NCBI GenBank assembly: GCA_965116475.1
Contig: OZ220691.1
Location: 2,624,001 to 2,688,000, forward strand
From: Gemmatimonadota bacterium
GTDB lineage: Bacteria; Gemmatimonadota; Gemmatimonadetes; Palauibacterales; Palauibacteraceae
Direction: 5' to 3'
Length of the DNA stretch: 64,000 nt
Shown: positions 27,381-50,609 of the stretch, one piece after another
Layout of the letters: every line of letters begins with the position of its first letter
Numbering within the stretch: position 1 is the stretch's first letter
Program-made: the position numbers and the translations under genes
The notes under the pieces: model-generated
Databases searched by the model: none
What the model saw: only the letters and a program-made list of their open reading frames with translations
What the model was told of the DNA's origin: nothing

Positions 27381-30300
27381 ATGAGAAAGGGTACCAAAAG
27401 GCTGTTGACGGTCGGGGCGGTCCTGACCATCGGCGCTTGCGGTGACACCGTAGAGGTCGTCACCCCGCCGTTCCCGGACATTCCGCCCATCACCATTCCA
27501 CCGCCGGTCATTCCGCCGCCGCCTCCGCCGCCGCCGCCCCCACCGCCGCCGCCTCCGGTGGCGAACCGGGCGCCCGTGGCAGTCGGCACGATTCCGGCGC
27601 ACAACGTCGACGTGGCTGGCACGGCCACCGTTCCCGTCGCGGGCTACTTCAGTGACCCCGACGGCGACGCGCTAACGTACACCGGTACTTCGTCGAACCC
27701 CGCCGCCGCCACGGTCAGCCTTGATGGCGCGACCGCGACGGTAACGGGTGTCGCGCGCGGAAGTGCCGTTGTCACTATCACGGCGGCCGACCCGGCCGGT
27801 TTGCAGGCCAACCAGGGCTTCAACGTCACGGTGGGCCAGAGCGGGATCAAGGAAGCCACGGTCGCGATCTTCGGCCTCCGAGATGTCGAGGATCGGTCGA
27901 AGTCGATCAACCCGACCAACGTGTCGGGCAACATCTCGGTCATCCTCGACGTGCAGCCGAACGACGAGACCGTGACGGCGATCGCGCTCACGCTGGGCGA
28001 TGAGACGATCCAGTGCCGCGGCACGTCGGCCGACGCGGACCCGATGGCGGGTCTCGCCCAGTCGGGCGGACAGATCGAGGTGGACTGCTTCCTCGACACG
28101 GACGCCGTCAGCGGCGCATGCATGGGGATGCAGCTCGATCCCACCTACGCCAACGGCGACTACGCGCTCGGCGCGTTCCTCACGACGGACGAGGGCAAGA
28201 CCCGCAGCGTCGTGGCCACGCAGCCGATCACCCTGAAGAACAGCGGGTTCGTGGTCATCGCCCACGAGGCCGGCGCGATGTCCGTGGTGTCGGACGCCAC
28301 GGAGGGTCTCACGTTCTACGGCGGGCCTTCCACGGCCGAGGGCAACCTGAACAGCTTCCACGCCTGCCCGGTTTCCTACAGCGGCACGGTGGTCGGGGAG
28401 CTGCAGCTCGGCACCAAGCTCACGGACACGGCGCGGCCAACTCCGAGTGAGGTCGAAGGTGCAAAGATCTCCTTCCGGAATCCGGCGGGCGGACCTTTCT
28501 ACCCGATCGACGACGAGGCGCCGTTCACCTGGTCGGTCAGCACGGCCCACTCACGGACCGGCAACAGCGCCGTGGAGAATATGCCGGGCGAGACCGAGCA
28601 CTGGGTCGAGGTCACCGGTCTCATCAAGAACCCCGATGGGCTCGACGTCAGCGGCGAGTTCGCGACGACGCCGTCAGGCCCGTACCACTTCGACTTCCGG
28701 GCTCCGCGCATCAATGCCGACGACGCGACATCGGCGGTCGTGGCCAGTGGGCCGTTTGGCGCTAGCGGCGCCCGCGCGAGCATCCCCATCGACGGCATCT
28801 ACCTGTCGGCGAATTCAAGGACGACGCCGCGCCTGGTCATATCGGCCGTTGAGGAGATGGGCGTGGGTGGCGTCGACGAGACCATCGCGGTGGGCGATTG
28901 CTCCGTCTCCGCCAACACGGACGCCGCCTCGAGGGGCACGGCGTTCGTGCCCGGCGAGGGAATGGACGACGTGCGCAACATCAGTGAGCTGCCCGAGGAC
29001 GATGCGGAGAGCGAACTGACCGACGACGGGGGCCTCGACTGCTACGTCGCCGAGTTGCAGGCGCTGCAGGACGCGATCGGCAACTCGACCTGGCTCGGCG
29101 GCAGCACCGCGCGGATCCAGACGGCGGGTGCATTCGGCGTCGACCACACGCCGCCGGAAGTCGACCGCCTCAGGCCGGATGAAACGCTCGTCATGAGCAC
29201 GGACATGCTCACGTTCGAGGCTGAGGATCCGGCACTCGAGACGGGCGAAGACGGCAGCGGCTTCAGCCGGCTCGTCGGCCAGCGCTTCTTCAGCGGCGCG
29301 TGGCGCTCCGGCGGCTCCAATGTCTCGGCGTCCAACACCGACGAAGATGTCACACTGAACGTCGGCGCCTTGGACGATGGTTCACATTCCGTGCGGGGAC
29401 TCGTAGGCGATGCCGCCCAGCCGACCAACTGGAACACGGCAGTCTTCCAGTTCGTGCGCGACACGAAGGCCCCCTCGTTCACCGCTGGCTCCGGTCCGGG
29501 CGCGGTCAGCGCTGGCTCGTCCGACCGCGTCACGGTCACGGTCAGCGGCTCGATCAGGGACGCGAACGTGATCGACGAGGCGCTGCTGATGGTCTTCGCC
29601 AATAACGGCTCGACGGCCGTCTGCGCCGGAGAGGACACCGCGGACGAGATGCTCCCGTCCTCGCGTGTCGGCACGAAGGACATCGAGAACGACTCGAAGA
29701 GGATCGACTTCGAGGAGTCCTTCACGATCAAGCGGCCGGCGGCCGGCGGAGGGATGGAGGAACTCTGCTTCGTCCTCGAGGTGATGGACGTGGCCGTTGA
29801 CGCCAGCGGTGACGATGAAGGAGCGAATATGGCCCAGTATGCGGCCGGCAGCTTCTCCATCAACTGGGGTGTCGGCATGACGATCACCGCAGAGGACGGA
29901 GGTGCCAACACGCTGGATGCCATGGGCGCCCTGCGGGTCAGCGAAGACGCCACCGCCGTCACGATCGGCGCTACCAGTCATACGCAGGCCGGCACCTTCG
30001 ACGTGATGCTCGACGCGCAGCCGGCGGGTCTGGTGACGGTCACCATTACCGGACATGGCGACAACGCCACGACGACGGACAGCACGTTCATCTTCGCGCC
30101 GACGGACGCTGAAGCTTCCGCGGCCACCGACGACGGGGCTGCGACGCCGACGGTGTGGAATGTCGCACAGACCGTCACGGTGAACGGTGTCGAGGACCAC
30201 CGGGGCGACGACGCCGCTACTCCGCCGGTTCCCAGTTCCGAAGACGCGATGAACGAAGCGGCGACACTGACGCTGACGGGGTCAGGCGGAGGCTACAGCG

Positions 30301-49394: not shown

Positions 49395-50609
49395 TTACCG
49401 ATCCCGGCTCGGACCGGCTAAATAGGCGGCCCAGTCGTTCATGAGGTGGCGCCGCCGCTCGAACAGATCGGTGCGCCGATATGCGGCTTCGACCTTGTTA
49501 TGCACGACGTGGGCCAGGGCCGCCTCGACGACGTCGCGGGGGTAGTCCGTCTTCTCGGCCGCCCAGTCGCGGAAGCTCGACCGGAAGCCGTGCGGCACGG
49601 CCGCGATCTCGTGCTTCTTCAGGAGGCGTCGGAGCGTCTTCTCCGACAGCGGTTGCGCGCCGCCGCGGGTGAACACGAACGGACTGTCGCCGTCGAGCTG
49701 CCGCGCCCGGTCGAGGACCTTCAGCGCGCGGGGGCACAGCGGCACGCGATGCTCCCGCTTCGCCTTCATGCGCGCCGCGGGCACCGTCCACACCCTGGCG
49801 CGGTCATCGATCTCCTCCCACTCGGCCCACCGCACCTCGCCCCACCGCGCGGCCGTCAGCACGAGGAACTCGAACGCGAGCGGGCCGGCGACCGACCGCC
49901 TCGAGCTCCGCACCGTCCGGATCGCCGGTCCGACCTCCCGATGCGGCAGGGCCGGCATGTGGCGGATCACGCGGTTCTGCGAGCCGAGCACCGGCGCGAG
50001 CTGGTCGCAGGGGTTGCCGCCGCGGAACTCCAGCGCGACCGCCCAGTCCATCACCGAGCGGATGCGCTGCAGCACGACCTGGGCCGTGGCCGCCTTCGTG
50101 TGCCAGATCGGGGAGAGGATCTCGAGCAGGTCGGCGCTCGTCACGTCCGACACCGCCATGTTGCCGATGCGCGGGAAGGCGTACCGGTGGAGGCTCGCCA
50201 TCCAGTCGCTCGCGTGCTTCTCGCTGCGCCAGCCGCCCTGCTTCTGTTCCAGGACGCGCGCGGCCGCTTCGGCGAAGCTGGGCACGTCCCGGGCGCGCCG
50301 CCTCTCCGCGATCGGGTCGCCGCCCTCGCGGGCCAGCTTGCGGTTCGCCCGCGCCTTCACCCGGGCTTCCGACAGCGAGACGAGCGCGACGCTGCCGAGT
50401 CCGAGGTCGTGGCGCCGCCCGCGGATGACGAGGCGCTGCACCCAGCTCCGGGCTCCGCTCGGCTGGACGTAGAGGTACAGCGTGTTGCCGTCGCAGTACC
50501 GGCCCGGCGGCGCCGCGCGCACGAACGCGGCCGAGAGCGCCTTGTCCGGATGGCGCCCCTTAGGCTTCCCCTTATGGGGCGGGACGGGGGAGGAGGCCGG
50601 CTTGTTCAT
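49395..50609 (-). CDS. Tyrosine recombinase/integrase, P4-like with N-terminal arm-binding domain
   Basis: DGNTLYLYVQPSGARSW..R..GRR..LGLG....VSLSEAR; catalytic TAARWGE, MKAKREH, HGFRSSFRDW, ALAH, AAYRR all intact; ATG 50609. Confidence 0.95.
   Translation of the reverse strand: MNKPASSPVPPHKGKPKGRHPDKALSAAFVRAAPPGRYCDGNTLYLYVQPSGARSWVQRLVIRGRRHDLGLGSVALVSLSEARVKARANRKLAREGGDPIAERRRARDVPSFAEAAARVLEQKQGGWRSEKHASDWMASLHRYAFPRIGNMAVSDVTSADLLEILSPIWHTKAATAQVVLQRIRSVMDWAVALEFRGGNPCDQLAPVLGSQNRVIRHMPALPHREVGPAIRTVRSSRRSVAGPLAFEFLVLTAARWGEVRWAEWEEIDDRARVWTVPAARMKAKREHRVPLCPRALKVLDRARQLDGDSPFVFTRGGAQPLSEKTLRRLLKKHEIAAVPHGFRSSFRDWAAEKTDYPRDVVEAALAHVVHNKVEAAYRRTDLFERRRHLMNDWAAYLAGPSRDR

Follow-up and report, generated by a model that had tools for sequence, protein, structure and literature searches.

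How does a reading frame of more than a thousand codons stay open if it lacks its own start codon, ribosome-binding site and signal peptide? The question is raised by B, a headless surface-protein cassette in a 64,000-nucleotide (nt) stretch of a Gemmatimonadota genome (contig OZ220691.1, positions 2,624,001 to 2,688,000), which we call the window. A complete relative of B, gene A, lies on the opposite strand of the window, and INT1, a tyrosine recombinase gene, ends a short distance from the point where B begins. A preliminary description, made from the sequence of the window alone, proposed that A and B are two bodies exchanged on one head by inversion. Our comparison of the locus with its relatives leads to the same answer: we put the probability at about 65% that INT1 drives an inversion between two short boxes, one in each gene, that swaps bodies A and B on a single head.

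The genome that carries the window (G000) is a single contig of 3.62 Mb with ~70% G+C. The relatives are genomes of Candidatus Palauibacter (Gemmatimonadota), which are kin and hence not independent samples. Seven sequencing runs carry the window wholly or partly; their labels name sponge metagenomes or the coded organisms A and B.

The headed gene, the headless cassette and their box

Gene A (27381-30671, forward strand) is a complete lipoprotein gene encoding 1096 amino acids (aa). Two sigma-70-like promoter matches, which are consensus matches only, lie upstream of it on the same strand (27061-27090 and 27243-27271). The gene begins with a constant head (27381-27767) that comprises a signal of the lipoprotein type (MRKGTKRLLTVGAVLTIGAC), a linker rich in proline and, up to its last strand, a cadherin-like immunoglobulin (Ig) domain (aa 61-118). 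The head runs into a box of 60 nt (27768-27827) with a candidate core, GTCACTATCAC, at 27771-27781, and the box is followed by the variable body of A (27828-30671), the currently expressed form. The head of A is the single head of G000; it adjoins a uvrA-like gene and, together with the promoter matches, makes up one expression site with a 5' coding head.

Cassette B is convergent with A, on the reverse strand. Its frame opens after a stop at 49357 and runs to 46079, with 1078 codons open from the box. The body (46079-49255) is silent: it lacks a start codon, a ribosome-binding site and a signal peptide of its own. A GTG at 49222 is the first start in frame, and no promoter-like site was found in the spacer between INT1 and B. 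A terminator-like hairpin of 17 pairs, followed by a T run, lies 3' of B on the same strand (46010-46048). The likeness of B to A begins exactly at VVTITAAD (49315), immediately preceded by AT-rich, non-coding DNA, and the two proteins are 45% identical over 748 aligned columns.

The box of the silent cassette occupies 49256-49315 of the reverse strand, with its core, GTTACTATCAC, at 49312-49302. When the two boxes are compared (27768-27827 against 49315-49256), 52 of the 60 nt are identical (86.7%), and both boxes, read in one and the same phase, encode an identical run of 20 residues. They stand in inverted orientation. The motif GTTGTYACTATCAC has two matches in the window, both of them in the boxes, against a mean of 0.07 in 100 shuffled versions, and a 20-mer version of the box has these two sites only in the 3.62-Mb genome at zero or one mismatch.

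Beyond the box of B comes an AT-rich spacer of 79 nt (49316-49394, reverse strand) that extends to the stop codon of INT1 (49395-50609, reverse strand), a tyrosine integrase of 404 aa and of the P4/CP4-57 type with the domains Arm-DNA-bind_3, Phage_int_M and Phage_integrase. Its catalytic residues are intact; across its family R, H, R, H and Y are kept in 27 of 27 members and K in 22 of 27. The arm domain is N-terminal, and the protein ends about 25 residues past the catalytic tyrosine, which is residue 377. Against the NCBIfam model PRK09692 it scores 159.5 bits, below the curated cut-off of 434. In all these respects the preliminary description was accurate: it had A complete, with promoters, a signal peptide and a first Ig domain; B headless, convergent and open for 1078 codons with a terminator of its own; 20 shared residues (52 of 60 nt) with an AT-rich codon run at both breakpoints and strong divergence downstream; and an intact recombinase ending 79 nt away, unusual in being P4-like, on which domain architecture and family comparison agree.

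With these parts the locus would be a switch of the shufflon kind, holding two cassettes for one large surface lipoprotein. The expression site would supply the promoter, lipoprotein signal, linker and first Ig domain, ending in the 60-nt in-frame box. INT1 would carry out strand exchange at the box's left end, within the core and its VTIT codons, and inversion of ~21.4 kb (27828-49255, a predicted segment drawn from the inverted boxes and the topology described below) would fuse the body of B seamlessly to the head, while the body of A became the silent copy beside INT1. The outcome would be two alternative surface proteins that are 45% identical. Reciprocal inversion, catalysis by INT1 and the exact location of the crossover are what we infer from the material that follows.

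The module in relatives and selection on the bodies

B-family genes occur in 21 of the 41 related genomes searched (G000 counted), every one in a single genus. Many are frames of ~1070 codons that open where B opens, and others, of ~1200 codons, are headed. The order seen in the window, in which an INT1-clade integrase is followed by the spacer, the box and a headless open reading frame, was found for 14 of the 15 copies in the genus and for one metagenome copy, that is, for 15 of 16. The integrases of these relatives are 80-89% identical to INT1 of the window, and the spacer measures 76 nt in 9 of the 14 genus modules. Among the 12 cassettes that can be traced to a stop codon, 11 are open, with 960-1279 codons; the remaining copy, in G003, is broken at 442 codons. 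Four modules (G017, G016b, G022 and G003) carry one additional Ig domain between box and body. A second conserved type of left flank (type II), which has no integrase, precedes headless cassettes in G020, in one bin and in a metagenome. In all headless copies, the homology with headed genes starts within 3 nt of one base.

Metagenome contigs scanned with B yielded no relative. Scanned with the box pattern, they gave five loci, two of them chance matches and three from one relative, which has a headed gene, a copy adjacent to INT1 and a cassette with the type-II flank. A scan of genome contigs with a degenerate 20-mer of the box gave 46 loci, about two thirds of which were chance matches in unrelated phyla and were dropped; the further analysis covered only L035, L039, L041, L048, L051, L055 and L060. 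Of 36 genus genomes, 11 have the box 20-mer together with an INT1-clade integrase, 2 have the 20-mer alone, 2 the integrase alone, and 21 have neither. Two short-read assemblies (G012 and G043) have four box copies, all of them at most 90 nt from a contig end, with the contigs breaking inside the box; this would also happen with a plain repeat.

Six genomes have a headed gene and an INT1 cassette on the same contig (G000, G011, G020, G017, G003 and G042), and in all six the two are convergent, that is, inverted, at a distance of 11-36 kb. This convergent arrangement is the one topology preserved by a box-to-box inversion.

The head is constant and the body variable. Over its last 300 nt, the head of A is 88-100% identical in nucleotides to its counterparts in four other species. 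Those of G020, G011, G002 and G006 match it at 83-100% over the last 120 nt and at 83-88% in the box; just past the box, identity falls to 55-60% over the next 60 nt, except in G006, which has an A-like body. In G023, which has neither an INT1-clade integrase nor the box 20-mer, the 60 nt that correspond to the box are only 60% identical.

We built a quick maximum-likelihood tree with IQ-TREE from 31 bodies (residues 21-720, the box excluded). The label headed or headless changes 8 times on this tree, against a mean of 9.1 when labels are shuffled, which is no fewer than at random. A, which is headed, is sister to a headless cassette with support of 98; B, which is headless, is sister to the headed gene of G011 with support of 100; and the headed gene of G020 clusters with two cassettes of its own genome. 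For example, the body of A is 71% identical to the INT1-adjacent headless cassette of G016, and B is 78% identical over 502 residues to the metagenome cassette with the type-II flank. On this tree, bodies have changed between the headed and the headless state many times in evolution. Alleles in the other state, which the preliminary description had proposed looking for in related genomes, thus exist on both sides: the nearest body to B is headed, and close relatives of A are headless, one of them beside INT1.

We measured selection as the ratio of nonsynonymous to synonymous substitution rates (dN/dS) by the method of Nei and Gojobori in 11 pairs of bodies, which were headed-headed, headed-headless or headless-headless. 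The ratio was 0.38-0.59 in 11 of 11 pairs and alike for all three types. The values for B against its relatives were 0.38-0.47. Two INT1-adjacent headless cassettes had a dN/dS of 0.47 at a dS of 0.33 over 1054 codons without a stop. The equality across pair types means that silent copies evolve as expressed ones do, and judged by these ratios headless bodies are under purifying selection. Relaxed selection on B had been named in advance as a sign against the switch; it is not what we find.

The simplest alternative is that B is a dead relic: a P4-like island beheaded a second copy of the gene, and no switching takes place in G000 now. The relatives of INT1 are indeed multi-copy islands in Ig-domain genes that leave a headless 3' part behind an AT-rich end. 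The broken cassette of G003 demonstrates that the module can decay, and no inversion was observed, the read mapping being uninformative at the junction. Against a relic stand the open frame of B and its dN/dS, as well as the same module with an intact cassette in 11 of 12 assessable genomes, where INT1 is 84-89% identical and the bodies are 43-62% identical to B. The surroundings of INT1 also lack the marks of an island. We found no head-like sequence in the 1.4 kb upstream of INT1, no second head or 5' end of B in G000 (where one gene alone gives another head-like match, that of 777 aa downstream of B), no copy of B's junction sequence in the genome other than at A, no direct repeat of the junction, and no tRNA gene in the window. 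The neighbours of INT1 encode the unknown protein p206, a beta-barrel protein of the outer membrane and a regulator of the LuxR type, and none is an island gene. The missing 5' end of B, which the preliminary description had suggested might lie at a far island boundary, is thus neither upstream of INT1 nor elsewhere in G000. We consider a relic very unlikely, and the comparative evidence, including the recurrence of the module in 15 of 16 copies, favours a surface-antigen switch over simple truncation, as had been proposed.

The module could also act as an integron-like carrier, in which INT1 and its cassette excise bodies as circles between direct boxes and re-insert them at the head, or move them between strains. 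Boxes occur in both orientations in G020 and G011, so that deletion or excision products are possible there; the relatives of INT1 integrate and excise; and the body tree is incongruent with the species, which have bodies in common at 71-80% identity. G000, however, has no more than two boxes, in inverted orientation, which leaves inversion as the sole option, and the inverted topology holds in six of six genomes. No circular junction was seen, in data that could not have shown one. We therefore regard a carrier of this kind as highly improbable and return to an inversion driven by INT1.

The probable site of crossover and the possible origin of the integrase

INT1 is single-copy and forms one clade, which is nested among paralogous island integrases. 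The paralogues in the genus are 60-75% identical to INT1 and multi-copy, with up to 15 matches per genome, and they belong to real islands with target duplications. For 9 of the 10 paralogous island integrases that we examined, the junction lies at the motif GTSACSGTSAC (VTVT codons) in a cadherin-like or Ig-domain gene, ~230 nt upstream of the integrase gene. One island of ~6 kb splits a headed gene of the A/B family itself in G011, with the motif at both ends and a right end that is AT-rich, as are the flanks of the cassettes. Since the paralogous islands target the VTVT/VTIT motif, the left end of the box would be the recombination target of the family. A conserved GC-rich stretch of ~130 nt directly follows the stop codon of the island integrases (L079-L085 and L093-L096; for example, L093:3438-9600).

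The codons and the variation of the core are informative as well. GTT and ACT are rare codons, used for 58 of 758 valines and 31 of 680 threonines in eight genes of the window. G000 contains 291 GTSACNNTSAC motifs, and only that of A has TA in the middle, which speaks for constraint on the DNA itself. The cores of partner sites co-vary: GATAAC is present at both sites of G022 (headed and INT1, with 26 nt identical), TCTCAC at both sites of G017, and TATCAC at both in most others. Together, codon usage, the co-variation of cores and the target of the paralogues point to the left end of the box as the recombination site. No convincing dyad-symmetric core was found when the surroundings of the box were inspected by eye. 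A fixed signature that would tell headed-type from cassette-type boxes was also considered; the first eight headless copies read ACA...GGA, but later copies broke the rule and the signature was dropped.

Two motifs of the spacer are kept across species: AATGWGGTAA directly after the integrase stop (AATGAGGTAA), and AKTTAYG 12-18 nt before the box. Both are candidate integrase-binding sites. A wider account is quite possible, though we advance it tentatively. The island integrases of sponge-symbiont Gemmatimonadota would use the codons of the last beta-strand of Ig domains (GTSACNNTSAC, VTVT/VTIT) as their attachment site, and INT1 would be a domesticated member of this family that lost its island, kept a spacer resembling a phage attachment site (attP) and now serves an in-frame, body-swapping inversion switch for a surface lipoprotein of ~1100 aa.

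G020 offers a possible trace of a recent exchange at the core. A cassette segment of 4.87 kb occurs twice, once after the INT1 spacer and once after a type-II flank, 99.9% identical from nt +4 of the box. A fresh exchange at the core would give this pattern, as would mixed isomers in the sample. The two ends of the contig in question (G020:C1; L015, L097, L013 and L014) form a six-box locus across the circularisation point, which contains permuted inverted duplicates (X-Y-Z against Y'-Z'-X') that are 98-99.9% identical; cassette c2 lacks the first 15 nt of the box.

Several observations weigh against a switch driven by INT1. To our knowledge, arm-binding P4-type integrases act as island integrases and excisionases, and we know of none that is an invertase. 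The boxes of G000 are merely 52/60 identical, and their 11-nt cores differ at one base. The INT1-clade copy of G008 (75% identical) has an internal TGA and no box downstream. Partner cores are mismatched in G003, where the cassette is broken, and in G042 although the cassette is intact. The inverted topology, being shared by genomes that are kin, may reflect a single ancestral state. The 99.9% duplicate of G020 ends at the point where the contig was circularised, so that assembly may have created it. Nor did we see an inverted molecule, in a mapping whose joint limit precluded the reporting of a box-to-box joint. Specifically, we mapped the contigs of three runs and seven Hi-C reads of a fourth to positions 31000-50999; the boxes, 21.5 kb apart, exceed the 20-kb limit on joints. 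The mapping gave many noisy joints and loose ends from relatives and a spike of depth at 49009-49675, with nothing interpretable at 49315.

The last of these observations concern the bodies and bring in a third alternative, in which the exchange of cassettes is real but proceeds by RecA-dependent homologous recombination or gene conversion through the conserved box and the conserved first 500-660 nt of the bodies, as in sap of Campylobacter fetus or pilE/pilS, INT1 being no more than a linked island integrase. Two cassettes of G020 are alike for their first 510 nt and diverge after that, and bodies of G011 are 88-92% identical over their first 660 nt. Some exchange boundaries thus lie inside bodies, and therefore homologous recombination or gene conversion shapes the family too. 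In addition, two synonymous polymorphisms of the box occur in all combinations among headed and headless copies. In G000, however, the 60 nt of the box are only 87% identical, the longest exact run shared by the two boxes is 14 nt, and the body DNA beside them is 70-73% identical. Homology so short and so diverged, set against the minimal length that RecA needs, is a poor substrate. Nor does RecA explain the invariant left edge of the homology at the target motif of an integrase family, the fixed spacer of 76 nt, the co-variation of cores or the linkage to INT1 in 15 of 16 copies. We judge this alternative unlikely as the mechanism of the switch and prefer site-specific inversion by INT1.

One of the runs, X6, contains a related strain in the data of another host. 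It covers INT1 and the 777-aa gene at 100% identity; over the body of B (46341-49008), depth is low in three bins out of four, and there is a loose end at 47264. The strain possibly has a different cassette beside INT1.

The protein, its surroundings and known switching systems

The bodies have no match in Pfam or NCBIfam at E-values up to 5, and ESM Atlas gave only a weak lead to Calx-beta (0.78). An AlphaFold model of residues 1-422 of B is all-beta and poor (mean predicted local distance difference test, pLDDT, 59.8). Foldseek returned generic tandem beta-sandwich surface proteins at template modelling (TM) scores of ~0.2, for example the HPI surface layer (S-layer) protein of Deinococcus, and no specific fold. 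The models suggest that the protein is a tandem beta-sandwich surface lipoprotein.

Downstream of B on the reverse strand lies the 777-aa lipoprotein-like gene (43656-45989), with Ig domains of the Big_2 and Big_9 families and a head of its own that is 46% identical to that of A; it accompanies cassettes in relatives. Next on the same strand is a decayed inverted copy (40357-43204) of the intact leucine-rich-repeat (LRR)/Big_2 gene at 31701-36059, broken into three frames and with an internal deletion; B is undamaged where this neighbour is decayed, in keeping with what had been noted at the outset. This large gene, which combines LRR, Big_2 and an M66-like peptidase, forms a nested inverted duplication whose arms measure 1193 nt (88% identical) and 487 nt (86%). 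Two further intact paralogues of the LRR + Big_2 gene lie to the right (54350-58612 and 58634-63685), and eukaryote-like repeat proteins are dense in the window as a whole. In the middle of the predicted invertible segment, a gene on the forward strand (39351-39869) encodes a 173-aa protein of no known family. Its orthologues in G002 and G022 (77% identical) stand directly upstream of INT1 and divergent from it, and a short match at 81% lies beside INT1 in G016. The position of the gene inside the segment hints at a further rearrangement of the locus.

On the side of the expression site, the headed gene adjoins the uvrA-like gene wherever the contig permits a view. In the window the uvrA-like gene (23444-26968, forward strand) encodes 1174 aa; alignment with the homologues of relatives starts only at about residue 150-220, which leaves an extra N-terminal part. 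In G011 a whole headed unit of 5039 nt recurs, without a difference (100% identity), at a distance of 3 Mb (L016:7723-12761 and L018:6472-11510). Inverted terminal repeats of ~22 nt (GGGAASTACATACCTGGGTTGA) bound the duplicated unit, and a second headed unit in tandem has this repeat at its start. The duplicated unit resembles a transposon that carries the expression site, or else a duplicate made in assembly.

If the switch is real, an arm-binding P4-type integrase acts as a programmed invertase, and a route from the integrase of a mobile element to a switch of the host is in view. It would also add a new pair of recombinase and site, the site being tolerated in frame within an Ig-fold domain. 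Antigenic and adhesive variation is known mainly from pathogens; here it would also be part of mutualist life in a sponge host that is phagocytic and rich in phages, and the locus would give a concrete means of testing how an uncultured symbiont alters the surface that it shows to host cells or phages. For those who assemble and annotate genomes there is a warning: such loci break contigs, and their 'truncated' genes are not pseudogenes.

Programmed surface variation by DNA inversion is textbook knowledge for mycoplasmas, enteric plasmids and gut Bacteroides. In the literature we found no such system described for Palauibacter, Gemmatimonadota or sponge symbionts, and a term search of the main text of the paper describing the order found integrase, inversion and cadherin absent. 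The nearest likeness is in mycoplasmas. The vsa site of Mycoplasma pulmonis lies inside the 5' coding region, so that the silent genes have no 5' end. The vsa system with HvsR, vpma of M. agalactiae with Xer1 and vsp of M. bovis (Xer1/Mbr) have one expression site, several silent surface-lipoprotein genes and an adjacent tyrosine recombinase, and they switch by site-specific inversion (PMC2268961); the switch proposed here has the same logic. The same source states that vpma switching requires Xer1, that HvsR mediates vsa rearrangements and that the vpma and vsp sites are in the 5' untranslated region (PMC2268961). The enzyme here is an arm-binding integrase of 404 aa and of the P4/CP4-57 type, whereas that of the mycoplasmas is short and Xer-like. 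The site here is formed by codons for an Ig domain's last beta-strand, the proteins have ~1100 aa, the bearer is an uncultured Gemmatimonadota sponge symbiont, and the inversion is predicted from comparison.

The shufflon of R64 and other IncI plasmids (Rci, sfx sites, pilV) likewise swaps C-terminal segments in frame on a constant N-terminus, and its sites are asymmetric, with core and right arm conserved and the left arm variable (PMC11852207). The sites here resemble this in sequence pattern only: the box is kept, and headed sites have a left flank unlike that of silent ones. Rci lacks an arm-binding domain and carries an additional domain at its C-terminus (PMC11852207). INT1, in contrast, has no such C-terminal domain and has Arm-DNA-bind_3. 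In the R64 shufflon the invertible DNA measures a few hundred bp; here the segments are genes of 3 kb, and the invertible DNA spans about 10-36 kb.

INT1 is like the P4/CP4-57-type island integrases (compare the domains in PDB entries 2khv and 3jtz) in architecture, catalytic residues and sequence. Those enzymes stand at the end of an island bounded by direct repeats, usually at a tRNA gene, but INT1 is not at a tRNA gene and has neither flanking direct repeats nor island cargo. It differs from its own island paralogues in the position of the site, which is ~76-79 nt 3' of the INT1 gene and ~230 nt 5' of theirs. In the sap locus of Campylobacter fetus and slpA/slpB of Lactobacillus acidophilus, surface-layer genes share a promoter-bearing segment or head by means of a large inversion; these inversions use long conserved 5' homology, and that of sap needs RecA. 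The locus described here has no long, near-identical 5' homology of the sap type; it has 60 nt at 87% identity and a dedicated, linked integrase.

Intragenic invertons also have inversion end points inside coding sequence and recode the protein; those covered in PMC10028968 are mostly short, flanked by inverted repeats and mapped with reads in gut bacteria, whereas the 21-kb exchange here is inferred from comparative genomics. Set beside all these systems, what would be new at this locus is the class of recombinase (arm-binding and P4-type), the in-frame site in an Ig strand, the phylum and life style of the host, and the visible descent of the switch from islands that have the same target.

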